A stretch of DNA of 64,000 nucleotides from a virus (Duplodnaviria; Heunggongvirae; Uroviricota; Caudoviricetes). Numbering within the stretch: position 1 is the stretch's first letter; each line of letters begins with the position of its first letter. The position numbers and the translations under genes were made by a program. Below, in pieces: positions 26,144 to 41,799 of the stretch. Below the pieces are notes generated by a model. That model had not been told where the DNA came from. It worked only from the letters and a program-made list of their open reading frames with translations, and did no database searches. Where the stretch lies: positions 8,476 to 72,475 of the IMG/VR virus record IMGVR_UViG_3300032050_000048; one strand, given 5' to 3'.

Positions 26144-26329
26144 ATGTATGTTATTGTAAAATTTATTAAAAACAAAAAAACAAATAAACACCTTCCGGTT
26201 ATCCTTTTAAATACTCAAAGTGAGATTTGGGAGTTTAAAACAAAAAGTGAGGCCGATCAAATAAAAGATGTTTTTGAAAAAAATTCTGATTCTGGTTACA
26301 TTTATGATGTCAAAAAAATTGGTCAATAA
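26144..26329 (+). CDS. Small hypothetical protein
   Basis: 61-aa ORF. Confidence 0.35.
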   Translation: MYVIVKFIKNKKTNKHLPVILLNTQSEIWEFKTKSEADQIKDVFEKNSDSGYIYDVKKIGQ

Positions 26330-26451
26330 TGGATGATGTATTTGAAGAAATTCATAATGAATTTGTAAACTCCGAAGATTATTATTATTTCATAAAAGAA
26401 ATGATGGAATACAATTATGAAGAATCACAAGAATAGTGATATTTATAAAGT

Positions 26452-26895
26452 ATGAAAAGAAGAATAAGATTAACGGAAAGTCAATTAGTTTCTTTGATAC
26501 AACGAATTGTTGAGGAAGAAAAGTATTCAGAGGAAGATTTGACATTTCCAAATGAAGTTTACGGTAAGGATTGTATTATCCGGGCAGCAAGAAAAAAACG
26601 AACAAATATGCCTGGTCGTGAATATGGGGCTGTTGTATTATGTGATGTTAATGATACCGGCAATTTATTTGTTGTTGGTGAATTAACGGTTTTTGGAAAA
26701 ACTGAAGAAGAGGTTAACCAACGTATTTGTCAAAACATAGAACAGGTAAAAGCTGAGTACGATGAGCTATTCCAAGGAGAGGAAGAAACCCTTATGGAGT
26801 CAATTGAGAGTTCAAGATGGGACGTAAGTGATCGGCCAATTTCTTGTGATTTTTATGACCAGGAGTATGAAAATCCTTGGGAATATAGAGGATAA
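26452..26895 (+). CDS. Hypothetical protein with N-terminal leader (MKRRIRLTESQLVSLIQRIVEEEKY)
   Basis: Leader family member. Confidence 0.55.
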   Translation: MKRRIRLTESQLVSLIQRIVEEEKYSEEDLTFPNEVYGKDCIIRAARKKRTNMPGREYGAVVLCDVNDTGNLFVVGELTVFGKTEEEVNQRICQNIEQVKAEYDELFQGEEETLMESIESSRWDVSDRPISCDFYDQEYENPWEYRG

Positions 26896-27361
26896 TTAAA
26901 AAAACATTTGTCAATTAAAAAAAATAACCTATATTTGTAAAAGAAAATTAAACTTTTTGTAAAACACATATATTTATAACGAAATGAAAACAACACAGAT
27001 AAATATGAACTTTAATAACCCGTGTCAGAGCTGGGTCAAGTCGTATATTACGCTTCATAAATTTCCGTGTCTTTCATTTAATAGTACAATGTAACGTATC
27101 ATCAAATATAAAAGTGAAAGACCCGGATCCAAAAGACCCGGGTTTTTTGTTTTAAATTGGTCTCTTAGTTTAACTGGAAAAATACGACTCTTGTAAAGTT
27201 GAGTTGTCGGGTCAGTTCCGACAGGGACCTCAAAAAAGAAAATGTTCTTTGACATATCGGCCTTAAAAGGAGAGGTAATCACAGCGGCCTGTGATCCCGT
27301 CTTGAAAACGGTGAGTACCGAAAGGTATGGGGGTCGGCACCTCATCTCTCCTCTTTTATAA

Positions 27362-27435
27362 TGTCCTGTAGACGAATTGGCAGAGTCACCTCACTTTGAA
27401 CGAGGAGTATGGAGGTTCAACCCCTTCCGGGACAA
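27362..27435 (+). tRNA. tRNA-Gln (anticodon TTG)
   Basis: Cloverleaf read by hand. Acceptor tgtcctg/cgggaca (one G-U). Anticodon loop ctTTGaa. T arm ggagg-ttcaacc-ccttc. Confidence 0.65.
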
Positions 27436-27448
27436 CAATAATAAACAT

Positions 27449-27522
27449 AGGGTAGTTGGCTAATTGGCTAAGCCGCCTCGTTTGGGACGAGGAAGATGCA
27501 GGTTCAAGTCCTGTCTACCCTA
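27449..27522 (+). tRNA. tRNA-Pro (TGG)
   Basis: Acceptor agggtag/ctaccct. D stem ggct/agcc. Anticodon stem cctcg/cgagg, loop ttTGGga. T arm gcagg-ttcaagt-cctgt. Confidence 0.8.
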
Positions 27523-27539
27523 CTAAAAAACTATAAGTT

Positions 27540-27728
27540 ATGATAACAAACGAAGAATGTGAAAAAATTTCTATCAAAGGTAAGTTGAGTGGTTTAAATA
27601 ATTACTATATTAGCCTTGTTAAAATTAGTAAGGACCCATCATATCGTGGGGATTTAAGTGAAGAACTTAAAAGAGTGGAAACAGAAATAAAAATAAACAA
27701 TCAAAAACTAATGTCTTATGAAAAGTGA
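27540..27728 (+). CDS. Small hypothetical protein located between tRNA genes
   Basis: 62-aa ORF. Confidence 0.3.
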   Translation: MITNEECEKISIKGKLSGLNNYYISLVKISKDPSYRGDLSEELKRVETEIKINNQKLMSYEK

Positions 27729-27745
27729 CAAGTATGACAAACGAA

Positions 27746-27818
27746 ACCCCTCGTAGCTTAATCGGGAAAGCACCATACTTTTAATATGGGGAGAATCGGA
27801 TCGTAACCGGTCGGGGGG
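27746..27818 (+). tRNA. tRNA-Lys (TTT)
   Basis: Acceptor cccctcg/cgggggg (U-G). Anticodon stem ccata/tatgg, loop ctTTTaa. Unusual T loop atcgtaa. Confidence 0.7.
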
Positions 27819-27828
27819 ACAAAAAACA

Positions 27829-27902
27829 CACACTCTTAGCTCAGTTGGTAGTAGCGGTTGTTTTACATACAACAGGTCATAGGTTCAAGTCCTATAGGGT
27901 GT
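27829..27902 (+). tRNA. tRNA-Val (TAC)
   Basis: Acceptor acactct/agggtgt. Anticodon stem gttgt/acaac, loop ttTACat. T arm atagg-ttcaagt-cctat. Confidence 0.75.
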
Positions 27903-28036
27903 ACAATAGGTTGATTAGGGAAGTACATAACGTTAACGTGTCAGTAGTTCGTAGTTATGTGGGAGTTTTAACTGTCATAGTAAAGCTAATCGTAAAATCA
28001 GATGTCCACAGAACCATCTTCTGATTTCCTAAACTT

Positions 28037-28117
28037 GGGAGAGTTGAGCAATTGGTTGGCTCAGCAGACTGTAAATCTGTCGCGAAAGCCTTGGGGGTTC
28101 AAGTCCCTCCTCTCCCA
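28037..28117 (+). tRNA. tRNA-Tyr (GTA), bacterial type II with long variable arm
   Basis: Acceptor gggagag/ctctccc. D arm gagc-aattggttg-gctc. Anticodon loop ctGTAaa. 13-nt variable arm. Confidence 0.8.
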
Positions 28118-28126
28118 CAACAAAAT

Positions 28127-28199
28127 GGACAAGTAGCTCAATTGGTAGAGCAATCGGCTGTTAACCGATAGGTTGTAGGATCGTACCCTTCCTTGTCCG
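28127..28199 (+). tRNA. tRNA-Asn (GTT)
   Basis: Acceptor ggacaag/cttgtcc. D arm gctc-aattggta-gagc. Anticodon stem atcgg/ccgat, loop ctGTTaa. Confidence 0.8.
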
Positions 28200-28205
28200 C
28201 AATAA

Positions 28206-28278
28206 GTTCACGTAGCTCAATTGGTAGAGTGCCGATCTGATATGTCGGAGGTAATGGGATCGTAACCCGTCGTGAACA
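28206..28278 (+). tRNA. tRNA-Ile (GAT)
   Basis: Acceptor gttcacg/cgtgaac. Anticodon stem ccgat/gtcgg, loop ctGATat. T arm atggg-atcgtaa-cccgt. Confidence 0.75.
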
Positions 28279-28435
28279 CAAAAAGAGGAATAACTTGCGT
28301 AGGTGCCTCAAGGAACTGCAGTCCTACTACGCTCTATGGAAAGTAATCCCTGAAGGCGACGGGGCATGCCTGCTAAGCATTGCGATCGGTGAGAATCCGA
28401 TTGTGGATCGTTACCACTGCTTTCCTCAACATATG

Positions 28436-28508
28436 GTGTATGTAGCTCAATCGGTAGAGCGTTGGTTTGTGGAACCAAAGGTAATGGGATCGTAACCCAT
28501 CATACACA
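28436..28508 (+). tRNA. tRNA-His (GTG)
   Basis: Acceptor gtgtatg/catacac, with an extra G immediately 5' that could be the G-1. Anticodon stem ttggt/accaa, loop ttGTGga. Confidence 0.8.
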
Positions 28509-28703
28509 CAAATAGTTCACAACGGACAAGGCTTAGGCAAGTGAGTTGAGAATGAGTCGTAGGAGATATTACCAAAATGATTAAGTTCAATAAAGGAATC
28601 GTTTGGACTACAAAAAGTTTGATACAAGAGATTGGTGGGTGGCGAGTGGTTGACCAGAACTATTTAAATATCCGATGTCGGTCCCGAGCTAGGTCGGGCA
28701 TTT

Positions 28704-28774
28704 GCGTGGTACAGACAAGGTGTCGGGTAGGTCTCCAAAACCTCACTGGGTGGGTTCAATTCCTACACCACGCG
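28704..28774 (+). tRNA. tRNA-Trp-like (CCA) with degenerate D arm (possible pseudo-tRNA)
   Basis: Acceptor gcgtggt/accacgc, G73. Anticodon arm aggt-ctCCAaa-acct as in E. coli tRNA-Trp. T arm gtggg-ttcaatt-cctac. The D region does not fold canonically. Confidence 0.4.
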
Positions 28775-28820
28775 CTAAAAATAATTTTGGTGGTTAAAAA
28801 ACTTTTTGTATCTTTGAGAT

Positions 28821-29318
28821 ATGAAAAACAGACTACCATACGAAGCAACAGGAAAGGCAATCAAAGGGTATAGTGACTCTAAAATTGCAAAAGGTGAAAC
28901 AAACGATTGTGTTGTAAGAGCATTTGCGTCCTCATTTGAGGTTTCATATGACTATGCACACAAGTATGTCGCTGAAGAGTTTAATAGACAACCAAGAAGA
29001 GGGACATTTGGGACTCCATTAAAATTTGTTAAAATGTCCGATAACAGAGTTATGATAAACGGAAAAAAAGTTCATATTGTTGGTGAAAGAAAGAACGACT
29101 ATATGTTAAGATCTTTGGATTACCCCGTTAAGGTTAAAGGTGAAGTGGTTACAAGAAAAATGACTGTTGGTACCTTTGTTAAGAAAAATCCAAAGGGAAC
29201 TTTTTTTGTACTTGTTAAAGGTCACGCTTTTACAATTAAAGATGGTGTTGTTGTTGGAAACTTTGAGGATTCTCAAAAATTGAAAAGACCGATGCGTTGT
29301 GCATTTGAAATTAAATAA
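28821..29318 (+). CDS. Hypothetical protein
   Basis: 165-aa ORF inside the tRNA island. Confidence 0.5.
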   Translation: MKNRLPYEATGKAIKGYSDSKIAKGETNDCVVRAFASSFEVSYDYAHKYVAEEFNRQPRRGTFGTPLKFVKMSDNRVMINGKKVHIVGERKNDYMLRSLDYPVKVKGEVVTRKMTVGTFVKKNPKGTFFVLVKGHAFTIKDGVVVGNFEDSQKLKRPMRCAFEIK

Positions 29319-29320
29319 AA

Positions 29321-29396
29321 GGAACTATGGTGTAAGTGTGGTGTGTCACGTTGGACTGAAAATCCAAAGGTTGGGGTTCAACTCCCTATGGTTCCA
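29321..29396 (+). tRNA. tRNA-Phe (GAA) with an over-long D region
   Basis: Acceptor ggaacta/tggttcc. Anticodon stem ttgga/tccaa, loop ctGAAaa. T arm tgggg-ttcaact-cccta. The D region is 23 nt, GT-rich. Confidence 0.6.
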
Positions 29397-29419
29397 CAAA
29401 CAAATAAATTAAGGAAATT

Positions 29420-29875
29420 ATGAACAGAGTATTCAGAAAAGTAACCGGAGAATCTGTTCCTGACATTGTAAAACATACTGTTGATATATTAAAGGAATGT
29501 CCCTGGGTTGAGGTACACATTGGTACTGACTCTCAGAATCATAGAAGAAGTACTATATATGTTACAGCAATTGCTTATAGATTTGGGAATAGGGGGGTTC
29601 ATTATATCTATCACAAACAAAAGACAAAAAAGATTAAAGATAAATGGACCAGATTATGGAATGAGGCCGATTATTCAATTGAGGTTGCAGAGTGGTTAAC
29701 CACAAAAGTGAATGTAAAGGTGGAAATAGATTTAGATTACAACAGCGACTTAAAACACTTCAGCTCAAAATTAGTCCAACCGGCTGTTGGTTGGGCGACT
29801 TCACTGGGGTACAAGACAAACATTAAACCCCACAACCAAATTGCAACAAGGGCGGCAGACCACCACTGCCGCTAA
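29420..29875 (+). CDS. Hypothetical protein
   Basis: 151-aa ORF. Confidence 0.5.
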   Translation: MNRVFRKVTGESVPDIVKHTVDILKECPWVEVHIGTDSQNHRRSTIYVTAIAYRFGNRGVHYIYHKQKTKKIKDKWTRLWNEADYSIEVAEWLTTKVNVKVEIDLDYNSDLKHFSSKLVQPAVGWATSLGYKTNIKPHNQIATRAADHHCR

Positions 29876-29879
29876 TTAT

Positions 29880-29952
29880 GAGAGGTTGTCCGAGCGGCGT
29901 TAGGTCTGTGGTTGCAACCCACAGTACGGGGGTTCAAGTCCCTCACCTCTCT
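29880..29952 (+). tRNA. tRNA-Cys (GCA) with Ser-like D arm
   Basis: Acceptor gagaggt/acctctc. Anticodon stem tgtgg/ccaca, loop ttGCAac. T arm ggggg-ttcaagt-ccctc. Confidence 0.55.
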
Positions 29953-29961
29953 CAACAAAAT

Positions 29962-30035
29962 GCCCCTATGGCGGAATAGGTATACGCGTCAGATTTAGGA
30001 TCTGAATTTTGCAGGTTCAAGTCCTGCTAGGGGTA
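29962..30035 (+). tRNA. Type-I (short variable arm) tRNA with anticodon TAG (Leu codon CUA/CUG); identity uncertain
   Basis: Acceptor gccccta/taggggt, A73. D arm gcg-gaataggtata-cgc. Perfect anticodon stem tcaga/tctga with loop ttTAGga. 5-nt variable loop. T arm gcagg-ttcaagt-cctgc. Confidence 0.6.
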
Positions 30036-30403
30036 CAAAACTTTAAAAAAATAAACGATTATGAAAACGTATGACCAACATAAGATGAAAAGAACTCAGA
30101 TCAGGGAAGACCAGGTAAAAGCCGGATTCTTTGACGGTAGATTTGTTTCCCGGGTTGAGGAGTCAAAAAATACTTACACACGAAAGATTAAACATAAAAA
30201 ACAATTTTTTGTTTAATATTTACACTTTTTAAAAGTATTATATATTTATAACAAAAATAATAAAACTGCAAATGAAAAATTTACATATCATATCTTTGAG
30301 AGGGTTAGCAGAAGCTGAGGATTCTATCTATGTGAAGATGGTGTGATAAATTAATACATAAAATATTAGAAACCCATCTTCAAAAAAGATGGGTTTTTTG
30401 TTC

Positions 30404-30443
30404 TTTGACATATTGGAAATATAAAAAATTAAATATACCTTTG
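30404..30443 (+). promoter_or_regulatory. Promoter region: GTTCTTTGA motif and Bacteroidetes-type -7 element TAccTTTG, 5 nt upstream of ATG 30448
   Basis: TAccTTTG at 30436-30443 and TTTG/TTGG upstream; preceded by a terminator hairpin cccatcttcaaaaaagatggg at 30371-30399. Confidence 0.45.
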
Positions 30444-30447
30444 TTGT

Positions 30448-30741
30448 ATGGTAAAATTTAGTGATATAAAGTTTAAACCCCATAGCATGGGTGTTGGTCT
30501 TCAGGGTACTATTTTCTTTCCGGGAGGATATGGAATTTCTTGTGTTAGATTTAAATCTCCTTTTGGTGATAGATATATGTCTTATACAAGTAACGAAGAT
30601 GAGTGGGAAGTTGCAATCCTAAAAGGTGATGAAAACAACTGGGAACTTTGTTATGATACAATTTTAACAAATGATGTTTTGGGATACCAAACAAAAGAAG
30701 ATATTGAAAAAATTATGAGATATCTTATAAGATTACATTAA
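30448..30741 (+). CDS. Hypothetical protein
   Basis: 97-aa ORF. Confidence 0.45.
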   Translation: MVKFSDIKFKPHSMGVGLQGTIFFPGGYGISCVRFKSPFGDRYMSYTSNEDEWEVAILKGDENNWELCYDTILTNDVLGYQTKEDIEKIMRYLIRLH

Positions 30742-30745
30742 AAAG

Positions 30746-30777
30746 ATTTGGTAGATTAAAAAATTTGACATATCTTT
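30746..30777 (+). promoter_or_regulatory. Bacteroidetes-type promoter (TTTG, 20-nt spacer, TAtcTTTG)
   Basis: TTTG at 30746-30749, TAtcTTTG at 30770-30777. Followed by a gtaagacaaa leader and a GTTCTTTGA motif at 30844-30852. Confidence 0.5.
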
Positions 30778-30779
30778 GT

Positions 30780-31250
30780 AAGACAAACGATGGGGGTAGG
30801 AAGTTTAGAAATTGGTATCCTACCCCCAGATAAAGGGAAAAAAGTTCTTTGAAAACATTGTGATTTATTACACTAAAGCGAGGGGGAAAACTTTAGGTAG
30901 TATGTGTTGAACTAGCTTGCTCCGACTAGCACGGTCTAATCCGCCGTGAAGCATTTAATAATGGAGTAATGATGCTGATACATATAAATCACAACTTTTT
31001 AAAATATTGTGGTGGTAAGAAAAGGTGAACTCGTTAAGTTCATAGACCTGTTGACAAAAGATGGTGAAACGAGTGTGGTTGTCAACTACTGTATCACAGA
31101 TATAGCAGGCGGGAGGTAGAGGATCTCACCGGTCTCATAAGCCGGTTTAACTTGGTGCGATTCCAAGGCGTTGCTACAACAAAAAGGGTGGATAGGTGGG
31201 AGGGCCTTTCCTAAAAGACGGCACGCTAGGCCCGTGTTCACCCTTAAAAT
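30780..31250 (+). ncRNA. Candidate structured noncoding transcript A (about 470 nt between the promoter and tRNA-Asp; class unknown)
   Basis: No credible ORF. GC-enriched relative to the surrounding DNA. Hairpins such as gggggtagga...tcctaccccc. Ends at tRNA-Asp. Confidence 0.35.
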
Positions 31251-31322
31251 GGTCCATTGGTGTAGTGGCTAACATACATCCCTGTCACGGATGTGCTCCG
31301 GGTTCAATTCCCGGATGGACCG
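31251..31322 (+). tRNA. tRNA-Asp (GTC)
   Basis: Acceptor ggtccat/atggacc. Anticodon stem catcc/ggatg, loop ctGTCac. T arm ccggg-ttcaatt-cccgg. Confidence 0.8.
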
Positions 31323-31351
31323 CTAAACAATTAAAAACTAAACAAAATGAA

Positions 31352-31573
31352 ATGTTAAAGTTTAAACTGGGGTTGTGGGGTGTTGTAGGTACCACAATGA
31401 TTTACATCTACATAATGAATTTATTTTTCAGTTATGTAATCAACCGGGAGGTTGATGAAATCCTACAAATCGGTGCTAGTTTTATAGCTTTATTCTACAC
31501 CGTTTTTCAAATAAAGCTAATAGTAAAAGAAATAACAAATTTATTTAACAAAAAAGAAAAAGAAAATGATTAG
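31352..31573 (+). CDS. Small membrane protein
   Basis: The track ORF 31196..31573 overlaps tRNA-Asp, so an internal in-frame ATG at 31352 was chosen. MLKFKLGLWGVVGTTMIYIYIMNLFF is hydrophobic. Confidence 0.4.
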   Translation: MLKFKLGLWGVVGTTMIYIYIMNLFFSYVINREVDEILQIGASFIALFYTVFQIKLIVKEITNLFNKKEKEND

Positions 31574-32468
31574 TTTGATTGTAACATTAGTGTTTTTGAT
31601 TATCGCAGGGGTGATGATTGTAAAAGGTAAAATTAACGATGAGTCCTCAAGTATTCTAAAAGGAGTTGTTGTTGGTGTTGTGGGTGTATTGATTGGCGTA
31701 TTCCAACCATACTCACTTGAGAGAATTGACGCCGGTCACAAAGGTATTGTGGTTAACTTGTCCGGATCTGAAAGAGGGGTTGCTTCATATCAGTACAAAA
31801 CTGGGTGGGTTGTTTATAACACCTGGTTCACGCAAGTTCTTGAGTTCCCAACCTTTCAACAACATATTGAGTATGATGATCAGGTTGTAATTACAAAGGG
31901 TGGGTTCTCAGCAACTATTAAACCATCGTTTAACTACTCGTTGAAACCGGAAGCAATTGGTGATATGTTTGAAAACCTACGATTGGGTGTTAAAGAAATT
32001 GAACAAGGGTGGCTTAAAAACGCAATTGTTGGGGCGGTTAATGATGAAGCAAATAAATGGGAAGTTGATAGTATTTTTTCTAATCGTCAACAGTTTGAAG
32101 CGGCAATTGTTGTTGAGTGTAATAAACGATTAACAAAGTGGTTTGATGTGTCACAACTTAGAACAAACATTACACCACCGGAGGCGCTCCAGGAATCAAT
32201 TATTGCAAAAACAAAAGCTATCCAACAAGCTGAAGCCTCCGAGCAACAAGCAATTGCTGCAATTGCAGAAGGAAAACGTAAGGTGGCTGTCGCAAGAGCC
32301 GACTCGGCAGAAACAATTATCAACGCAAAAGCGGCATCACTTGCAATTGAGTTGAAACAACAAAAACTAACACCGATGTATATTGAGTATTTGAAGGCAA
32401 ATGCTTGGGATGGTAAACTTCCAACAACAATGGCAGGCAGTTCTGGAACGTTTTTGAATATTAAATAA
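31566..32468 (+). CDS. SPFH/band-7 (prohibitin/stomatin-like) family protein
   Basis: N-terminal TM helix, then GHKGIVVNLSGSERGV...; a coiled-coil AIQQAEASEQQAIAAIAEGKRKVAVARADSAE typical of the SPFH fold. Confidence 0.7.
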   Translation: MISLIVTLVFLIIAGVMIVKGKINDESSSILKGVVVGVVGVLIGVFQPYSLERIDAGHKGIVVNLSGSERGVASYQYKTGWVVYNTWFTQVLEFPTFQQHIEYDDQVVITKGGFSATIKPSFNYSLKPEAIGDMFENLRLGVKEIEQGWLKNAIVGAVNDEANKWEVDSIFSNRQQFEAAIVVECNKRLTKWFDVSQLRTNITPPEALQESIIAKTKAIQQAEASEQQAIAAIAEGKRKVAVARADSAETIINAKAASLAIELKQQKLTPMYIEYLKANAWDGKLPTTMAGSSGTFLNIK

Positions 32469-32473
32469 AAAGA

Positions 32474-32505
32474 TTTGGAGGATTGAAAAATTCTCCTTAT
32501 CTTTG
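32474..32505 (+). promoter_or_regulatory. Bacteroidetes-type promoter (TTTG, 20-nt spacer, TAtcTTTG)
   Basis: TTTG at 32474-32477, TAtcTTTG at 32498-32505. Followed by a gtaaaacaaa leader and GTTCTTTGA at 32526-32534. Confidence 0.5.
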
Positions 32506-32509
32506 TAAA

Positions 32510-32775
32510 ACAAATAAGGAAAGAAGTTCTTTGAAATAATAGATTGGTAAGATAGCAGATAGACCTACGTCAGCAGACTCTCATAGAGAATCAGAAATGA
32601 TGAGTAAAACGGAGCCCCTATCAGACTAACGTGTTGAGGAGGTACTCAAAGTTTTCCGGGAGGTTAACTGGTAATAAACGATGGTTTGGGTAGAACGGAT
32701 GTTAAAGGCGAGGTGTGGGTAGTAAGGATGGGGTAACCCACGAATAAGTAAATCTTAAGGTCTTACCATTTTTTA
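32510..32775 (+). ncRNA. Candidate noncoding RNA B (about 265 nt, promoter to terminator-like hairpin plus T-run)
   Basis: No ORF. Ends with gtaag...cttac followed by ATTTTTT around 32746-32775. Confidence 0.35.
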
Positions 32776-32928
32776 AAAATCTAAATCACGGGTGGCTCCC
32801 TTAATAGTTAAGGCTGACCTTAAGCATCTGACGCATGTCTATACAGGGGGCGAAAGTGATTTAAAATATTGTAATGAACAACGCGACCGCAGGAGTTGTA
32901 CCTTTATGGTTTTGTAATGTGGTTTTAT

Positions 32929-33003
32929 GTTCCGTTCGTCTAGCTGGTTTAGGACACTTCCCTTTCACGGAAGAGATCATGGGTTCAAATCCCATACGGA
33001 ATA
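32929..33003 (+). tRNA. tRNA-Glu (TTC)
   Basis: Acceptor gttccgt/acggaat. D arm gtc-tagctggtttag-gac. Anticodon stem cttcc/ggaag, loop ctTTCac. T arm atggg-ttcaaat-cccat. Confidence 0.8.
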
Positions 33004-33013
33004 CAAAAAATAT

Positions 33014-33087
33014 GGTCCCGTAGCTCAGCTGAATAGAGCAACGCCCTTCTAAGGCGAAGGTCACAGGTTTGAATCCTGTCGGGACTA
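33014..33087 (+). tRNA. tRNA-Arg (TCT)
   Basis: Acceptor ggtcccg/cgggact. D arm gctc-agctgaata-gagc. Anticodon loop ctTCTaa. T arm acagg-tttgaat-cctgt. Confidence 0.8.
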
Positions 33088-33233
33088 CAAAAAATTAAAA
33101 GTTATGAATTATACAATAGAAAAGAAATGTCATGCTTGGATAGGAATATGGTGGCAAGTTAAGGAAGATAAAGAGATAGTCTTTAAGAGCAAACGAAAAA
33201 AAGATTGTGTGTTCTACGTGAACAGTAAAAAAT

Positions 33234-33338
33234 AGTCAGGTGGCGGAATTGGTAGACGCACCTCAACACCCTGGGGTTGAGACATTAAATGAGGGTTAAC
33301 AATGGGTCTCTTATAGGTTCAAATCCTGTCCTGACTAC
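33234..33338 (+). tRNA. Atypical 105-nt type-II tRNA-like gene (Leu-type D arm; anticodon region expanded or unresolved)
   Basis: Acceptor agtcagg/cctgact. D arm gcggaattggtagacgc is identical to E. coli tRNA-Leu. T arm atagg-ttcaaat-cctgt. About 18 nt too long between the D and T arms; no clean 7-nt anticodon loop. Confidence 0.35.
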
Positions 33339-33601
33339 ACGTGGTAGGGTTCATCACCCCCTAGTGTGCCCCACATAATGAGAAACGGAGTGATATCCGT
33401 AGGGGAACGTACATTGTCGTATAGGGAGAACGACTGGGAAAGTAAGTTGTATTAGATACAGTGGAAACGCACATCTCAACAGAGGTGGACTGAAAGTTTG
33501 CCCGACCTGGGTTGAGGACGAAAGAAACTATTTCTAACCTACCTTTTTGGTGGGGACAACCGGAGCACCTGTAAGCTGAATAAATTAGGGTGTTAACAAA
33601 G
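33339..33601 (+). ncRNA. Candidate structured spacer RNA E between the two atypical type-II tRNA-like genes
   Basis: About 260 nt, GC-enriched, no ORF. Confidence 0.25.
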
Positions 33602-33690
33602 GCAAGTGGCGAAATCGGCAGACGCTAAGGTAGATCTAACTAAGATTGTACCGAGACAATGTAAAAGTTGTCGTATAGGTTCAAATCCTT
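33602..33690 (+). tRNA. Atypical type-II tRNA-like gene (Leu/Ser-type D arm gcgaaatcggcagacgc; anticodon unresolved)
   Basis: Acceptor aggcaag/cttgtct (G3-U70). T arm atagg-ttcaaat-ccttt. A hairpin gacaa...ttgtc in the variable region. No canonical anticodon arm found. Confidence 0.3.
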
Positions 33691-33879
33691 TCTTGTCTAC
33701 AAATACAATTAAAAGATGAATATGTTATTGTTTGTATCATTTGTTTTGTTTATACTTTTAATAGGTAGAAAAAAAAGAAAATATTAACTTCAGTACCCAT
33801 ACAGCGGTGAGACGGGCTAAGTAAGATACGATTCCTCGGGGCTGGGAGTAGAATGCTGAAGAAATATTTTCTAAAATAT

Positions 33880-33959
33880 GCTCCGATGGTGAAATTGGTA
33901 TACACGATGCGTTTAAGCCGCATTCCTACGGGGTGAGGGTTCAAATCCCTCTCGGAGTA
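33880..33959 (+). tRNA. tRNA-Leu (TAA), type II
   Basis: Acceptor gctccga/tcggagt. Anticodon stem atgcg/cgcat, loop ttTAAgc. 11-nt variable arm. T arm gaggg-ttcaaat-ccctc. Confidence 0.75.
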
Positions 33960-34062
33960 CTGTTGTGTTATTCCCTTGAGAAAGGAATTACGGTGGGATA
34001 TGGTCTTGATTTGGATTTAACCTAGTATGAATCACAACACAGAGGACTTCTCATCCTCAACC

Positions 34063-34136
34063 GGACCTTTAACTCAGTTGGTCAGAGTGCTTGACTCATA
34101 ATCAAGGAGTCGTAGGTTCAAACCCTACAAGGTCCA
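34063..34136 (+). tRNA. tRNA-Met (CAT); could instead be an fMet or Ile2 (lysidine) type
   Basis: Acceptor ggacctt/aaggtcc. D arm actc-agttggtca-gagt. Anticodon stem cttga/tcaag, loop ctCATaa. T arm gtagg-ttcaaac-cctac. Confidence 0.75.
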
Positions 34137-34151
34137 CACCGCTTAAGATGC

Positions 34152-34191
34152 AAACAACCACATTAATAGAAATATTGTGTGGTTGTTTTTT
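34152..34191 (+). terminator. Rho-independent terminator closing the tRNA island
   Basis: Hairpin aacaaccacat...tgtgtggttgtt followed by TTTTTT. Confidence 0.6.
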
Positions 34192-34232
34192 ATTTTCCTA
34201 TATGTAATAAATAAAAAATGAAAAAATATTAA

Positions 34233-34409
34233 ATGAGAAGAATTAGATTAATTAAAAGAAAGTTAAAAAAAATGTTAAAACACAATTGTAACAGAGAAGG
34301 AAGAATTGTTGGGATGTATTATGGTGATTCTACAGAGGATACAACCACAAAAGTAACATACAAATGTAGGGTATGTAATAATGTCTGGACAATGGAGCAA
34401 TTAGTATAA
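34233..34409 (+). CDS. Small basic zinc-ribbon-like protein (58 aa; not in ORF track)
   Basis: MRRIRLIKRKLKK...HNCNREG...KCRVCNNVW; the ATG of the next gene overlaps the stop. Confidence 0.35.
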   Translation: MRRIRLIKRKLKKMLKHNCNREGRIVGMYYGDSTEDTTTKVTYKCRVCNNVWTMEQLV

Positions 34410-34410
34410 T

Positions 34411-34785
34411 ATGGACACAAACCTTAAAATATTCCAGGAAATCTTTGACAACCTAAAAGGTGAACTTGTCATTTGTGATTTTTCTGTATATAGACTTATT
34501 GGAATGGTTGAAGATGAATATGATTATTATTATCTTTTATTTGATGGTAAAGAATTGTACTTATTTAGTTGTTTAATTAATTTGATTAGACTAAAAAATC
34601 AAATTGATGATGAGGATTATTCCGAAATGACTAGACTTGTAAAACTTAACCATCCGGATCAACCGGGATTTGACGGAATTACCGAAGAACTTACAACACT
34701 AAATGAAGAGTTTAAAAAAGAAATTATTTCTTCATTAAGAAACGATGTTAAATTTATTGTTGGACCATATTGGGATTTAAATTAA
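34411..34785 (+). CDS. Hypothetical protein
   Basis: 124-aa ORF. Confidence 0.45.
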   Translation: MDTNLKIFQEIFDNLKGELVICDFSVYRLIGMVEDEYDYYYLLFDGKELYLFSCLINLIRLKNQIDDEDYSEMTRLVKLNHPDQPGFDGITEELTTLNEEFKKEIISSLRNDVKFIVGPYWDLN

Positions 34786-35015
34786 ATAAAATGAATAAAG
34801 AACAAGTAAACCATCCAGAACATTACGGAGGATCTGATAATGTTTATGAAGCAATTAAGGTTATTGATGCCTGGGACCTTGGATTTTCTCTGGGAAATAC
34901 AGTTAAATACATCTCAAGAGCCGGAAAGAAAGAATCCGATAAAGAACTCCAGGATTTGAAAAAAGCTCTTTGGTATTTAAATCATCGTATTGAGCAACTT
35001 GAAAAAAATAGATAA
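34770..35015 (+). CDS. DUF3310-like phage protein
   Basis: NHPEHYGG...YEAIKVIDAW.LGFSLGNTVKYISRAGKK...DLKKALWYL matches the conserved DUF3310 pattern. Confidence 0.55.
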   Translation: MGFKLNKMNKEQVNHPEHYGGSDNVYEAIKVIDAWDLGFSLGNTVKYISRAGKKESDKELQDLKKALWYLNHRIEQLEKNR

Positions 35016-35287
35016 TGAACTACTTTTTGTTTTTAATTGGATTTTTATTTGTTGGTTGCACAACAACATATGTTGAAATTTATAACATTGAAAAATACCC
35101 GGTAACCTGGGATGATACAATAATTTATAAGGAGGATCACTGGCATTTTTGTGATAATGATAATATTTGGCATTGTGTTGAGCTTGAGGCTGACACAGTT
35201 CAAATTAATTGTAAAGATACATTGGTTATAAAACAATTAGTAACAAAATATAAAATAAGAAAAAATGACAACAGAAGAATTAAGTGA
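35015..35287 (+). CDS. Putative lipoprotein
   Basis: MNYFLFLIGFLFVGCTTT gives a signal peptide with a lipobox Cys. Confidence 0.4.
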   Translation: MNYFLFLIGFLFVGCTTTYVEIYNIEKYPVTWDDTIIYKEDHWHFCDNDNIWHCVELEADTVQINCKDTLVIKQLVTKYKIRKNDNRRIK

Positions 35288-35657
35288 GTATCTAGAATCA
35301 ATTGGTGGACTTAAAAATGGATATTACCCGGATAAACCACCAATTAAAAATGCGTATTATTTTAATTGTGATTCCGGATGGAATGAATTACTCAAAGAAC
35401 TTATTGAAGACTTAATAAGTCTTGGGTGGAATAAACAAGTATGTCAAGTTAAGGAAAAATTTGGCGGACTTAGATTTTATATAAATGAAGGGTCTGATGA
35501 GATTTTTGATAGAATAATAAAAGCTGAAAGGGATAGTTATAAAATCTGTGAAAAATGTGGTAAGGATGGTGAATTAAGGAATGATTTGGGTTGGTATTTA
35601 ACACTTTGTCCGGAACACTATAACGAAAAGCTAATTAAGAAAAACAGTACTTTGTAA
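35265..35657 (+). CDS. Hypothetical Cys-containing protein (CEKCGK...CPEH)
   Basis: 130-aa ORF. Confidence 0.45.
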   Translation: MTTEELSEYLESIGGLKNGYYPDKPPIKNAYYFNCDSGWNELLKELIEDLISLGWNKQVCQVKEKFGGLRFYINEGSDEIFDRIIKAERDSYKICEKCGKDGELRNDLGWYLTLCPEHYNEKLIKKNSTL

Positions 35658-35705
35658 GATTTTTAAATATTTATCATAATAAATAAACTTTAAAAAACAA
35701 AAATT

Positions 35706-35874
35706 ATGAAGTTAACAAAAGAACAAGCACTAGGTATTCTTAGACACGTATTAACGTTTGCCGGAGGTATCGTTGTTGCTAAAGGTTACGTTGATAACGC
35801 AGCAGTGGTTGAAATTATTGGTGGTGTTATGACATTAGCAGGTGCTGTTTGGTCTATAATTGACAAAAAGTAAT
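35706..35874 (+). pseudogene. Small holin-like membrane protein ORF, reading frame interrupted at a GGG run (35820-35822); frameshift or sequencing error
   Basis: Frame 1 gives MKLTKEQALGILRHVLTFAGGIVVAKGYVDNAAVVEII. Skipping one G continues as GGVMTLAGAVWSIIDKK with stop at 35872-35874. Unshifted, it ends at 35864 after a poor tail. Confidence 0.35.
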
Positions 35875-35897
35875 TTATTTGATAACATTTCTTACTT

Positions 35898-35925
35898 AAC
35901 CCCACTTAAACGGTGGGGTTTTTTA
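35898..35925 (+). terminator. Rho-independent terminator
   Basis: Hairpin aaccccac-ttaaacg-gtggggtt followed by a T-run. Confidence 0.6.
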
Positions 35926-35951
35926 TTTAATAATATATTTATATTATAATT

Positions 35952-36773
35952 ATGAAAAAAATACTTACAGAGTCTGAAGTTAAAAACATTAAAAATATGT
36001 ACTCAATTAATGAGTCATTACTTTCTGATGTTGTTGACAAAATAAAAGATTTACCGGATTTTGAAAATATCAAAAAAAAATTTAAGGAAGTTACAGGAAT
36101 TGATCTTGAATCAAAGGTCAATATTGGTGGCAAATCATCTAACACCAATTATAAAGGAAAAGTTGACTTTAGTCGTGGAGGGTTTAGTAGTGAACAAAAG
36201 GAAAATATTGAATACCTTTTATCTGAAATGGAGAAAAAGGGGATTAAGGACCCTTACACTCAAATAGGGATTTTATCTGTAATTATGAAAGAAACTAACT
36301 TCATTCAAAAAAGTGAAGTTGACTATTCAGATACCGCAAACTCAAGAATACGAAACACATTCGGTAAAAGAGTACGAAAATATTCCGATGAACAACTAAA
36401 TAAATTAAAAGCAAACCCAAAGAGATTTTTTAATGTTGTTTATGCAAATATAATTGGAAATGGTGATGTAGAAAGTGGTGATGGATATAAGTATCGTGGG
36501 AGAGGGTTTAATCAGTTAACAGGGAAGGGTAACTATAGAAAATATGGTTCACTTGCCGGTATTGATTTGGTAAGTAATCCAGATAAATTAAATGATAGAG
36601 AAGTTGCGGTAAAAGTTGCGTTACAATTTTTAACAAAAGGAAAAACAGATTTTCCTAAATTTGATAGTAAAAAAGAAGCAGCAGAATATTTTGCTGATAT
36701 AAATGCTGGTGGTGGTACAAGTACTCACAGATCAAATGCGGTTAAAGCGTCTGAAAATTTTGATATTAAATAA
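35952..36773 (+). CDS. Glycoside hydrolase family 19-like endolysin (peptidoglycan hydrolase) with leader-family N-terminus (MKKILTESEVKNIKNMY)
   Basis: YRGRGFNQLTGKGNYRKYGSLAGIDLVSNPDKL matches the GH19 catalytic core pattern (YKGRGxIQLTGxxNY). Confidence 0.65.
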   Translation: MKKILTESEVKNIKNMYSINESLLSDVVDKIKDLPDFENIKKKFKEVTGIDLESKVNIGGKSSNTNYKGKVDFSRGGFSSEQKENIEYLLSEMEKKGIKDPYTQIGILSVIMKETNFIQKSEVDYSDTANSRIRNTFGKRVRKYSDEQLNKLKANPKRFFNVVYANIIGNGDVESGDGYKYRGRGFNQLTGKGNYRKYGSLAGIDLVSNPDKLNDREVAVKVALQFLTKGKTDFPKFDSKKEAAEYFADINAGGGTSTHRSNAVKASENFDIK

Positions 36774-36776
36774 AGT

Positions 36777-37388
36777 ATGGAGAATTTATCTGGAATAATT
36801 ATTGCTTTTATAACTGGAGTCTTGGGACCGATTTCAATCCTACTTATTAAAAACTATTTTGATAAGAAAAAAAAGAAACCGGATATGGTTAGAGAAACAC
36901 TTAAAGTTTCTGAACTTGTAAATCAAAAAATAGAACATATTAAAGAAGAGTTTAATGCTGATCGTGTTTGGGTTACTCAATTTCATAATGGAGGCAACTT
37001 TTACCCAACTGGAAAATCAATGGCAAAATTCTCAATAATATATGAAGCTGTAAACCCTGGAATATCCTCAGTGCAGTCAAACTTTCATAATATACCAGTT
37101 AATCTATTTTCAAAATCAATCAATGAATTACTTGTAAATGACGTTATTGAAATTACAGATTATAAAGATGAAACAATTGCAACTTTCGGTCTTAAGTATA
37201 TTGCCGAAGACACTGGCTGTAAATCTGGTTATTTATTTGCAATTAAAACAATTGATGAAAAATTTATTGGTACATTAGGTCTTGATTACACAAAAAAGAA
37301 AACAAAACTTAATATTGAATCAATAAATCATCTTCAGGTTCACGCATCATCTTTGGGTGGTGTTTTAATGAACCATTTAAATCAATAA
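36777..37388 (+). CDS. N-terminally membrane-anchored protein in the lysis cassette
   Basis: TM helix LSGIIIAFITGVLGPISILLI followed by a KKKKKP stop-transfer. Confidence 0.5.
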   Translation: MENLSGIIIAFITGVLGPISILLIKNYFDKKKKKPDMVRETLKVSELVNQKIEHIKEEFNADRVWVTQFHNGGNFYPTGKSMAKFSIIYEAVNPGISSVQSNFHNIPVNLFSKSINELLVNDVIEITDYKDETIATFGLKYIAEDTGCKSGYLFAIKTIDEKFIGTLGLDYTKKKTKLNIESINHLQVHASSLGGVLMNHLNQ

Positions 37389-37418
37389 TTTTTACAATCT
37401 TAGTATATTTATTGTAGT

Positions 37419-38102
37419 ATGAATTTAGTCTATCCATTAGAAAAAAAAGGAGTTAAAACATCTGGATTTGGGAATAGAAAGCACCCGGTTAAAGGTAGCA
37501 CTATTCACCATAATGGTATTGATATTGGTATTCCAGACGGAACAAGTGTTATATCAGTCGCTAACGGTGAGGTTGTTAGATCAGATATGAAAGACAAAAA
37601 TGGGTATGGAAATTTTATTATTGTAAAACATAATGTTGATGGTGAAACCTTTTTTTCTTGTTATGCACATTTAACAAAAAGACTTGTTGATGTTGGTGAT
37701 AAGGTTAAAAAAGGAGAGAAAATTGCCGAATCCGGTGGAGGTCAGGGTATTTCTGGTGGTGGGGGTATGTCAACAGGACCACATTTACATTTTGAGATAA
37801 GAAAATCAGTTACTGGTGGTTGGGTAAATCCAGAACCATACATTAATGGAGCACCAATCACAAAAGGTTTTGGTGGTAAGGAAAATAAAAAAGATTTGAG
37901 TGATGATGGTTTAGCGGCAACACTAATGAGTATCGCTAATGATTATGTCCTTAAACCAGTTGGGGATTTGTTGGACAAATCAGAAACAATCAAGTTATTC
38001 AAAAAAATGGCTGCCGATGTTGAGAAGGAATACGAAGCATCCGATAAGGGAATGTGGGAACAAAATGAGAGATTAAAAAAAATTATTAAAAAAATTCTCT
38101 AA
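37419..38102 (+). CDS. M23 family peptidase (lysostaphin-like endopeptidase)
   Basis: HNGIDIGIPDGTSV...GNFIIVKHNVDGETFFSCYAHL...GPHLHFEIRK carries the HxxxD and HxH M23 signatures. Confidence 0.8.
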   Translation: MNLVYPLEKKGVKTSGFGNRKHPVKGSTIHHNGIDIGIPDGTSVISVANGEVVRSDMKDKNGYGNFIIVKHNVDGETFFSCYAHLTKRLVDVGDKVKKGEKIAESGGGQGISGGGGMSTGPHLHFEIRKSVTGGWVNPEPYINGAPITKGFGGKENKKDLSDDGLAATLMSIANDYVLKPVGDLLDKSETIKLFKKMAADVEKEYEASDKGMWEQNERLKKIIKKIL

Positions 38103-38193
38103 CTTCTTGTCAAATCAAAATATTTATCATAACTTTGTAATGTATTTAAAACAGATAGTTCTTTAATTTATTAACCCTTAAAACCACATTAAG

Positions 38194-38352
38194 ATGTCAG
38201 AAGATAATTTTAATGAAGTAGAAAATAAGGAACCCCAAATGTTTGGGTATCGTGATTCTGCTGGGAACCTACTTTGGACTCCCAACCAGGAATTTGCGAA
38301 ACTTAGAGCATACCATTTTGGGACTTATGATGTCTACACAGAAAAAAATTAA
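38194..38352 (+). CDS. Small hypothetical protein (52 aa; not in ORF track)
   Basis: MSEDNFNEVENKEPQMFGYRDSAGNLLWTPNQEFAKLRAYHFGTYDVYTEKN. Confidence 0.3.
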   Translation: MSEDNFNEVENKEPQMFGYRDSAGNLLWTPNQEFAKLRAYHFGTYDVYTEKN

Positions 38353-38370
38353 AAAAAAGTTCATAAAGTA

Positions 38371-38402
38371 CTTGACAAACTGAAAAAAGTGTCGTAACTT
38401 TG
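38371..38402 (+). promoter_or_regulatory. Bacteroidetes-type promoter (CTTG, 20-nt spacer, TAacTTTG)
   Basis: TAacTTTG at 38395-38402. Followed by a gtaaaacaaa leader and GTTCTTTGA at 38431-38439. Confidence 0.5.
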
Positions 38403-38404
38403 TA

Positions 38405-39372
38405 AAACAAATTCGGAAACGTCCGAAATCGTTCTTTGAAAAATTAGAATATCCATTCAGAATGTTTGATGATGAAATCCTTGCGGTTGATTCTGAGTAA
38501 CAAACTGATAAAGATATTTGGCCGTATATAGTCAATAAATAAACTGGGAAACCAGGATAAAGTGGGTCAGTAGTGTAACTGATCTGCGGTTTGGGTAACC
38601 GAACTTAAGTATACAAGCGGGATACCGTTTAACCTTTAGTACCGAGGGCAACGCTGTAGGGAAAGTGGTTAGATGATTGGGCGATGTGGGTCGTCCGGTT
38701 GAGGTGGGAACACCAATAGGAATAACTCGTAGGGATATTGCAAAAAATAAGATTATCCAATTTTATTATTGCGTGTCCCAATATCAGAGGATACTTAAAA
38801 CCGAAAGGTATGATAACAAACAGGTGGTGCTGACATTATCCTTGACCCTTGCCTACCAAGGCATAAGTCACGAAGTAATCTTAAAATATTGAGATGGGGA
38901 CATTTCAGAGAGTAGTTGAGTATCGGCTCGTTCAAAAGATGAGCTGGCTCTGGTGGCGGACCACTACTTTCATAATCCACGACACAAAAACCTAAGAAAA
39001 AATTATGAAATTAATTTAATCAGAAAGGAAAAGTGTCCGTCAGGTTTGGATGAAAGGTGACTACATAGTAATGAGCCGTTCATTGCACACAAGGATCCCA
39101 AGTCTAAGTGTAATTATCCGAAAAACCTTTAGTCCCGCAAGGACGAACTGGGGAGGCATCCTCGGAAAGAGTCAAGTAAGGTGAGAGTAGTCCAAATCTC
39201 AAGGAGTGGTTCCCCTAAGTGACCGTCACTGAGAAATACTTCTCAAAAGGAAGTGGATAGGAGTAGAATAAATAATGACTCTAAAGGTTCTCAATAAAAC
39301 GTGTAATCTCAACGTTCTTTTTAGGTTTAATCTTATAAGACAAAAAAAATTAGTAGGGACAGGAAACTGATC
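38405..39372 (+). ncRNA. Candidate large (about 0.95 kb) structured noncoding RNA, promoter to terminator (GOLLD/ROOL-like?)
   Basis: No ORF over 71 aa, and the reading frames are broken. GC-enriched. Ends with the aggga...tccct hairpin plus TTTTTTT at 39345-39372. Sits beside the tmRNA and the tRNA island. Confidence 0.35.
39345..39372 (+). terminator. Rho-independent terminator of the large candidate ncRNA
   Basis: Hairpin aggga-caggaaactga-tccct followed by TTTTTTT. Confidence 0.55.
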
Positions 39373-39439
39373 CCTTTTTTTGTTTACACAAAAATATAGA
39401 AATCGTACAGCAATAATATATAATTTTAAGACATAAAAA

Positions 39440-39467
39440 AACCCCATCGTATGATGAGGTTATTAAT
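39440..39467 (-). terminator. Rho-independent terminator of tmRNA (minus strand)
   Basis: Minus-strand hairpin cctcatc-atac-gatgggg followed by TTTTTTT, directly after the CCA end. Confidence 0.65.
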
Positions 39468-39858
39468 TGGTGGAGATGCGGGGCTCCGACTCCCCGGTCC
39501 AGCTCGTCTTGTTTAAAAGACCACTACATGCTTAGGTTGGTATTTTCTAATACCCCAAAATAGTTGATTTGTTCTTTTCCATCGTAAATCAACAACCAAT
39601 GGTTTCTAATCCGGATTTAGAGAGCCGACCAGGTTGCTCTATAAAACTACGACTTCTGTTGCTAGGCTATATGTCTGCCGGCCCCCGGTTTTTGTTGCGA
39701 TTACGCTACAGCAACCTCAGAAGTGCGGATTAACCCAACAGCTTCCATTTTGTTTAGCACATTGCCATTTAAAAAGTGAATCAGTTTTTAACGAGATTAA
39801 TTCAGTCCCGACATGCTCCTTTTATTCAACCAACGCCTGTCAAATCCAATACATCCCC
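39468..39858 (-). ncRNA. ssrA: tmRNA (transfer-messenger RNA, SsrA), one-piece, CCA-encoded
   Basis: Minus-strand 5' end GGGGATGTATTGGATTTGACAGG matches the E. coli tmRNA 5' end GGGGCUGAUUCUGGAUUCGACGGG. The 3' end CTAAGCATGTAGT...GGACCGGGGAGTCGGAGCCCCGCATCTCCACCA matches the conserved 3' end. Acceptor ggggatg/catctcc has G3-U70. Internal tag frame ...TSEVAVA-TAA. Confidence 0.85.
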
Positions 39859-39924
39859 GTATATTGTAAATGACTATTATCAAAGAACTATATATAAATA
39901 CAAATATAAACATATTTATACTAT

Positions 39925-41776: not shown

Positions 41777-41799
41777 AGGAGGGTTTTTAACCCTCCTTT
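41777..41799. terminator. Bidirectional terminator between convergent peptidase and Clp ATPase genes
   Basis: Hairpin aaggagggtttttaaccctcctt. Confidence 0.6.

Follow-up and report, generated by a model that had tools for sequence, protein, structure and literature searches.

A probable Bacteroidota-type boxA element at the stable-RNA genes of a tailed phage

A 64,000-nucleotide stretch of DNA from a tailed phage of the class Caudoviricetes (IMG/VR record IMGVR_UViG_3300032050_000048, positions 8,476 to 72,475; the window below) contains a cluster of stable-RNA genes accompanied by a short repeated motif, AGTTCTTTGA(A/C). This motif is probably the Bacteroidota form of boxA, an element known from ribosomal RNA (rRNA) operons, which the phage uses at the start of untranslated transcription units. 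It is identical to the boxA of host rRNA operons and of CRISPR (clustered regularly interspaced short palindromic repeats) arrays, it corresponds to boxA in position and strand, it is conserved in related phages, and the hairpins that accompany it covary. More tentatively, we propose that a large group of freshwater Bacteroidota phages carries a portable mimic of the rRNA operon, in which a strong promoter of the host type is followed by a boxB-like hairpin and boxA. This module would hand stable RNAs, chiefly the cage-forming GOLLD RNA, to the antitermination and RNA-chaperone machinery of the host.

Distribution of the motif in the window

The core of the motif, GTTCTTTGA, has seven exact matches in the window, against 0.94 ± 0.94 expected from 100 dinucleotide shuffles, none of which (0/100) reached seven copies. 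A previous reading of the same DNA, referred to here as the original prediction, had placed six copies at 27244, 30400, 30844, 32526 and 38431 on the plus strand and at 39880-39888 on the minus strand and had suggested a comparison with shuffled controls; the positions are exact and the enrichment is borne out. These six copies are confined to 27.2–39.9 kb, the stable-RNA region, which contains 17 transfer RNAs (tRNAs), a GOLLD RNA and a transfer-messenger RNA (tmRNA), and each of them shares its strand with the RNA gene that lies downstream. The proposed tie to stable-RNA genes stands as a specific association, except that the gene next to the copy at 30400 is a protein-coding open reading frame (ORF). 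The further statement that the motif never occurs in protein-gene blocks overlooked the seventh copy, at 35392-35400 on the minus strand, which lies antisense within protein ORF 35265-35657 and outside the system described here. Because the shuffles predict about one such copy, we regard it as a chance occurrence.

Sequence identity with the boxA of Bacteroidota

The motif that a published analysis terms boxA upstream of CRISPR arrays reads AGTTCTTTGACATATTGAAA in Tannerella forsythia and AGTTCTTTGACATGTTGAAA in Odoribacter, and the enterobacterial form is (T/C)GCTCTTTAACAA (PMC7665894, Supplementary file 4). A scan of host genomes, one per species, with the 17-mer AGTTCTTTGACATATTG from the Bacteroidota internal transcribed spacer returned at least 120 loci. 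Among the matches listed, 73 of 80 titles belonged to Bacteroidota, including Chitinophagia, Sphingobacteriia, Bacteroidales, Flavobacteriales, Cytophagales and Saprospiraceae, and 84 of 121 matches were situated in the 16S-23S spacer on the rRNA strand, 270–880 nucleotides (nt) past the 16S 3' marker and 55–240 nt ahead of the 23S 5' marker. At least four of the 34 listed loci without rRNA markers precede CRISPR arrays, two are spacer fragments following tRNA-Ala, and in an Algoriphagus metagenome-assembled genome (L140; L numbers denote loci from our searches) the 17-mer is found between tRNA-Arg and tRNA-Leu. Bacteroidota genomes (L128, L140, L141, L163 and L191) thus have the 17-mer between tRNA genes or before CRISPR arrays, so the host clade already uses boxA beyond its rRNA operons.

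A related form was found in the 16S leaders. Of the 49 operons with enough upstream sequence for this check, 14 carry A(A/C)GTTCTTTGAA(A/G) at 93–165 nt before 16S, several of them with a TAnnTTTG box and a hairpin upstream of boxA. The leader and spacer matches together indicate two forms of boxA in the host clade, one for leaders (GAAA/GAAG) and one for spacers (GACATATTGG). The phage copies fall into the same two types in matching contexts: the leader type follows phage promoters, with copies 3 to 5 (counted by position; GTTCTTTGAAA) matching the 16S-leader boxA, and the spacer type (GTTCTTTGACATATYGG) lies within the tRNA array.

The Bacteroidota host suggested by the original prediction is supported by three independent lines of evidence: by TAnnTTTG promoters, by the lack of Shine-Dalgarno enrichment and by the clade-specific boxA. 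The TAnnTTTG consensus is known from promoter studies of Bacteroides and Flavobacterium, and the -7 boxes of this form in the window are located in intergenic regions. Shine-Dalgarno-like 4-mers precede 2 of 57 ORFs, compared with 3.2 ± 1.8 at random positions, and ORF leaders are A-rich and G-poor. The extended motif is the boxA of Bacteroidota rRNA spacers, a clade-specific variant that could serve as a simple sequence marker for host prediction of uncultured phages.

Individual copies and their promoters

Four copies are located 12–65 nt downstream of a TAnnTTTG -7 box and for this reason are probably transcribed. Copy 3 (30843..30855, plus strand; leader type, AGTTCTTTGAAAA) starts 65 nt past the -7 box of a predicted Bacteroidetes-type promoter, TTTG-N20-TATCTTTG (30747..30778, plus strand), and an 11-bp hairpin (30791..30828, plus strand; -22.1 kcal/mol, z -3.0) occupies the boxB position between them. 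This copy is followed by an unannotated stretch of 43% G+C (30853-31250) and then by tRNA-Asp. Copy 4 (32525..32537, plus strand; leader type, AGTTCTTTGAAAT) lies 20 nt past the -7 box of a second predicted promoter with the same TTTG-N20-TATCTTTG make-up (32474..32505, plus strand) and precedes an unannotated stretch of 41% G+C (32535-32928), tRNA-Glu and tRNA-Arg. It lacks a hairpin, a version of the arrangement also present in L012, L017, L077 and L088. Copy 5 (38431..38443, plus strand; leader type, GTTCTTTGAAAAA), at the 5' edge of GOLLD, lies 28 nt past the -7 box of the predicted GOLLD-cassette promoter TTGACA-N17-TAACTTTG (38372..38402, plus strand), which is conserved in about 100 viral contigs. 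The 6-bp hairpin TTCGGA-AACG-TCCGAA (38412..38427, plus strand) in the boxB position before copy 5 keeps its pairing with other bases in relatives.

The three promoters had originally been described as perfect TTTG-N20-TAnnTTTG sequences, which applies to those at 30747 and 32474 and not to the one at 38372. The gap of about 70 nt reported between them and the motif was wrong, as the values above show, and the conserved leader GTAAAACAAA is exact at two copies and reads GTAAGACAAA at the third.

Copy 6 (AGTTCTTTGA; 39880..39889, minus strand), which differs from copies 3 to 5 in reading GTTCTTTGAT, lies 12 nt past the -7 box TATATTTG (39908-39901) and, as had been noted, 21 nt before the 5' end of the tmRNA, for which Rfam gives the limits 39468-39858 on the minus strand.

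Copies 1 and 2 have in common a longer form, GTTCTTTGACATAT(C/T)GG. Copy 1 (27244..27260, plus strand; spacer type, GTTCTTTGACATATCGG) starts 12 nt past tRNA-Thr and ends 8 nt ahead of a cloverleaf-like element (27269-27351), with tRNA-Gln next, at 27362. The same layout, with a tRNA, boxA and another tRNA at +16 to +20, recurs in L024, L037, L042 and L078. The cloverleaf-like element on the plus strand is an 83-nt multi-branched structure with a 9-bp closing stem and a CUUGAAA loop, for which tRNA finders make no call; if it is a tRNA, its anticodon would be UGA. It may be a non-canonical tRNA-Ser, because the corresponding position after boxA in L042 is taken by a tRNA-Ser.

Copy 2 (30400..30416, plus strand; spacer type, GTTCTTTGACATATTGG) equals the last 16 bases of the spacer 17-mer, the preceding base being T instead of A. 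Directly 5' of it, at the boxB position, is a terminator-like hairpin with a U-run (30368..30398, plus strand; -15.9 kcal/mol, z -3.2), and the order of hairpin, T-run, boxA and tRNA is seen in L049, L061 and L077 as well. In the window the next gene after copy 2, 40 nt downstream, is a 97-amino-acid protein ORF (30448-30741) and not an RNA gene. A possible additional boxA with one mismatch, GTTCTTTAA, was found at 38158..38166 on the plus strand, 20 nt past a TAACTTTG -7 box (38130) and 27 nt before a 52-amino-acid ORF starting at 38194; the same variant is present 5' of the tmRNA in L054. Overall, boxB-like hairpins lie upstream of copies 2, 3 and 5 and are missing before copies 1, 4 and 6, and folding predicts boxA itself to be unpaired and adjacent to stable hairpins.

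A conserved cassette in related phages

Viral contigs were searched with the pattern CTTTGTAAAACAAA-N(5-35)-GTTCTTTGA. Among the matches listed, the cassette is present in more than 115 viral contigs, and the 117 listed matches represent 70 distinct versions of a single cassette with the order TTGACA or TTTGG, about 19 nt, TAnnCTTTG, TAAAACAAA, hairpin, 2–5 nt and GTTCTTTGA. The hairpin is formed by 40 of 46 spacer variants, in which the stem bases vary and the pairing is kept (TCGGA/TCCGA, TCAGA/TCTGA, TCAGGA/TCCTGA and TCTCA/TGAGA). The GOLLD 5' domain directly follows the cassette in 103 of the 117 matches and the 3' domain follows some 450–500 nt further on in 91; Rfam confirmed GOLLD in all seven cassette loci that were checked (7/7). 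The remaining cassettes precede RNAs of the 32535-32928 type together with tRNAs, or stand straight before tRNAs.

The same viral loci contain 55 extra exact copies outside the cassette, which are typically situated directly after a tRNA and 14–21 nt before the next one, between a hairpin with T-run and a tRNA, or a short way upstream of tmRNA genes, whose identity was confirmed. In L049, L054 and L061, GTTATTTGA, GTTCTTTAA or GTTCTTTGA lies 5–6 nt before the mature 5' end of the tmRNA, each downstream of a TAnnTTTG box. As for the phage itself, megablast of positions 27000-40000 against annotated phages gave tRNA-sized matches only and no close relative, the viral-contig scan contained no relative recognizable by the protein encoded at 39925-40959, and an exact look-up of this protein recovered the same phage only, in several metagenomes of the Joint Genome Institute and ENA.

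Proposed function

In Escherichia coli and its relatives, boxA recruits NusB and NusE, which with NusA, NusG and other factors yield a Rho-resistant polymerase and also assist RNA folding (PMC7665894, PMC10250234, PMC12360218, PMC6614801). rRNA and CRISPR transcripts need this protection because they are untranslated. Rho has been reported in Bacteroidota, and NusB is described in the literature as broadly conserved across bacteria.

By analogy, we infer that the phage RNAs recruit host NusB and S10, which would allow GOLLD (about 0.9 kb), the multi-kb tRNA array and the tmRNA to escape Rho. The phage would place a host-type boxA where its untranslated transcription units begin, and there boxA in the nascent transcript would load the NusB-S10(NusE) dimer, followed by NusA and NusG, onto RNA polymerase; the polymerase so modified would be Rho-resistant, would elongate fast and would help the RNA to fold. 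For GOLLD, the two stretches of about 400 nt after copies 3 and 4, and the tmRNA, the predicted order is promoter, boxB-like hairpin (in two of the four) and boxA; the tRNA array would rely on spacer-type boxA inside it, as the host does between 16S and 23S. RNA of the AAGUUCUUUGAAAAA type, for example AAGUUCUUUGAAAAAUU and UGUUCUUUGACAUAUUGG, is proposed as the Bacteroidota ligand of NusB-S10.

If this is true, GOLLD would be made like rRNA, that is, fast, Rho-proof and folded during transcription, and its mass production could compete with host rRNA synthesis for Nus factors. GOLLD has, to our knowledge, been without a known function since 2009, and no description of its expression signals was found in the literature searched. 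An rRNA-style leader in more than 100 phages indicates how this RNA is probably transcribed and offers a handle for its expression and perturbation in a Bacteroidota host, through boxA mutants or manipulation of NusB or Rho.

Several observations weigh against this interpretation. The status of the motif as boxA in Bacteroidota rests on position and conservation, the transcription starts are predicted, and no counterpart of boxC was recognized in the window. Copy 1 has no recognizable upstream promoter; copy 2 has upstream a lone TATCTTTG box at 101 nt, without a -33 TTTG, and it stands between a terminator-like hairpin and a protein ORF. The tmRNA, at 390 nt and highly structured, is not an obvious Rho target, and since it is short and structured it may profit from boxA through speed or folding, and not through antitermination. 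In some contexts, suhB among them, boxA can instead favour termination by Rho or inhibit translation, and effects of this kind may be relevant to copy 2 and to the one-mismatch copy at 38158, both of which precede small ORFs. Finally, no boxA-like sequence was found upstream of GOLLD in Acinetobacter phage Herod, a single case; the link between boxA and GOLLD is therefore specific to a lineage and not a general feature of GOLLD.

Alternative explanations

It is very unlikely that the motif is instead an RNA-processing signal, at which an endoribonuclease of the host or the phage would free tRNAs, tmRNA and GOLLD from their precursors. Both in the window and in relatives the motif does lie 5–21 nt upstream of mature tRNA and tmRNA 5' ends, and it is found between the genes of polycistronic RNA units. 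However, in other phyla the same element, at CRISPR arrays as well as in the leaders and spacers of rRNA, is an established NusB/NusE site, the distance to the downstream RNA ranges from 5 to about 110 nt, and RNase P, as far as we know, requires no leader motif. The two roles are compatible, and processing could coexist with a boxA function.

We likewise give little weight to the possibility that Nus factors are bound for another end, with the RNAs acting as a decoy for NusB/S10 against host rRNA synthesis or the motif acting as a suhB-like repressor that would favour Rho termination or prevent translation of the ORFs at 30448 and 38194. Such uses have parallels at suhB and hisG, where boxA brings about Rho termination or inhibits translation, and copy 2 and the 38158 copy are located 40 and 27 nt ahead of ORF start codons. 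RNAs of the GOLLD type can moreover be very abundant, and ROOL RNA, which is related to GOLLD, is reported to reach the level of rRNA (PMC12286853). Nevertheless, what follows most copies, in the window as in relatives, is an untranslated RNA rather than an ORF, and the order of promoter, hairpin and boxA is that of rRNA leaders, whose outcome is antitermination.

The original prediction had assigned the TTTG of the motif to the -33 position of a second promoter class dedicated to stable RNAs; a variant of this idea takes the whole of GTTCTTTG as an unusual -7 element. The motif indeed contains TTTG, its last six bases resemble TAnnTTTG, it is always directed at an RNA gene, and copies 1 and 2 lack a convincing upstream promoter. 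Yet TAnnTTTG is absent 17–22 nt downstream of all six copies, which contradicts the -33 assignment. In searches for both a -7 box after the copies and a -33 box before them, neither was found to fit. Canonical promoters precede the motif, at distances that vary, and a -33 role would place the start of transcription inside the tmRNA, because the motif is 5–21 nt from tmRNA 5' ends, including 5–6 nt in L049, L054 and L061. The identical 17-mer between 16S and 23S is inside a transcription unit. Among the 26 promoter-like sites in the window, the motif lies within 120 nt only at the three that face long non-coding RNAs, and promoter-like sites just upstream of protein ORFs (28786 and 40953 on the plus strand; 45476 and 14788 on the minus strand) have no motif. 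No sigma factor or RNA polymerase was detected among the 20 largest ORFs of the window by Pfam and PHROG scans, which revealed only a glycosyltransferase, two lectin-fold proteins and one PHROG family of unknown function. All this makes a promoter element highly improbable.

An operator in the DNA, bound by a dimeric regulator of the phage or the host that reads the near-palindrome TTC-N3-GAA, is barely credible: TTCTTTGAA is an imperfect palindrome in copies 3 to 5, but copies 1, 2 and 6 lack this symmetry (GAC, GAT), the motif strictly keeps to the strand of the RNA gene downstream of it, both in the window and in the viral loci, and the element is conserved in rRNA spacers.

RNA genes of the region and other features

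The tRNA array (27159..34137, plus strand) consists of 17 tRNAs predicted by ARAGORN, along with small ORFs and unannotated stretches that are richer in G+C (40–49%) than the genome window (31.5%). Within it, two tRNA-like genes with insertions were noticed at 33234-33338 and 33600-33700 (plus strand), which the intron option of ARAGORN reads as tRNA-Leu(taa) with a 19-nt intron and tRNA-Arg(tct) with a 9-nt intron, respectively; the former scores 38 bits against the Rfam tRNA model. The 260 nt between them (33339-33599) are unannotated and have 46% G+C. A weak tRNA-Sec-like match at 28703-28774 (plus strand; 31.3 bits against a gathering threshold of 47) is situated in another unannotated stretch, 28510-28780, of 45% G+C.

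The stretches after copies 3 and 4, 30853-31250 and 32535-32928, are candidates for new large phage RNAs. Neither has an Rfam match at E <= 1, and the folding of these single sequences, each of about 400 nt, does not reach significance (z -1.3 and -0.3). In L012, L105 and L118, 240 nt of the second stretch are conserved at about 89%.

GOLLD RNA occupies approximately 38444..39330 on the plus strand, with the variable 5' domain first; its 3' domain matches Rfam RF02032 at 38908-39315 (plus strand) with 319.1 bits, against a gathering threshold of 150. The phage tmRNA (39468..39858, minus strand; Rfam) is convergent with it, so that the two genes are arranged tail to tail; each of them has a boxA and a terminator-like hairpin of its own. 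The convergent pair is also present in L011, L016, L049 and L061. In the course of this work, unannotated GOLLD RNAs were noticed in the tRNA islands of cultured Acinetobacter baumannii phages Herod, Ab15, AM24, YMC13/03/R2096, Bestia and P577. In Herod (L246, 2272-2640; MW316732.1, approximately 26253-26621) the Rfam score is 225 bits, and in Ab15 a 'hypothetical protein' is annotated across GOLLD. The tRNA island of a related phage contig (L061, 3348-3409) includes a freshwater-1 RNA (Rfam, 87.7 bits).

Two further observations concern sequences outside these genes. The 12-mer TATATTTATAAC is found at 26969 and 30241 (plus strand), both A/T-rich intergenic sites, and may represent another promoter class or a regulatory site. 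At 41787-43832 (minus strand) the phage encodes a 681-amino-acid ClpB-like double AAA+ protein, according to precomputed Pfam matches for the same gene in L001.

Comparison with known systems

The closest parallel is provided by the antitermination signals of rRNA operons (boxB-boxA-boxC of the 16S leader and 16S-23S spacer, with the complex of NusA/B/E/G, S4 and SuhB). The core sequence is that of the Bacteroidota rRNA boxA, and the order of promoter, hairpin and boxA is the same. So are the two contexts, a leader close to the promoter and, after a tRNA, an internal spacer, and in both systems the cargo is a long untranslated structured RNA. In contrast to rRNA operons, the signals described here are phage-borne and drive GOLLD, tmRNA, tRNAs and unannotated RNAs instead of rRNA, and neither boxC nor a leader-trailer helix was recognized in the phage.

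The boxA of CRISPR arrays (Stringer et al. 2020, eLife, PMC7665894) likewise represents re-use of host boxA outside rRNA operons, where it shields a long non-coding transcript from Rho, and its Bacteroidetes examples have the sequence of copies 1 and 2. These elements, however, are chromosomal and precede CRISPR arrays, and their function was demonstrated in Salmonella and Vibrio, not in Bacteroidota.

Like the nut sites of phage lambda, the cassette would let a phage exploit host Nus factors via boxA in its own transcripts. Lambda has boxA followed by boxB, depends on its N protein and serves protein-coding early operons, whereas here the hairpin comes before boxA, in the manner of rRNA operons, and stable RNAs are the targets. 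Pfam and PHROG gave no informative match among the 20 largest ORFs, and no N-like protein was identified, small ORFs not having been searched. A nut site of the lambda type was rejected on the grounds of this order and of the lack of an N-like protein among those 20 ORFs.

With respect to GOLLD (RF02032), the RNA in the window is a phage-borne member of the family beside a tRNA island, as in the 2025 cryo-electron microscopy paper, which mentions neither antitermination nor Rho and does not mention the conserved leader of promoter, hairpin and boxA (PMC12286853). Our literature search likewise returned no account of boxA in connection with GOLLD, with phage tRNA genes or islands, or with phage tmRNA. 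boxA itself was already known, as were the use that lambda makes of it and its role at CRISPR arrays; what is new is its widespread occurrence in the context of phage stable RNAs, which would add phage tRNA islands and phage tmRNA to the settings of boxA-dependent control, so far rRNA, CRISPR arrays and lambda.

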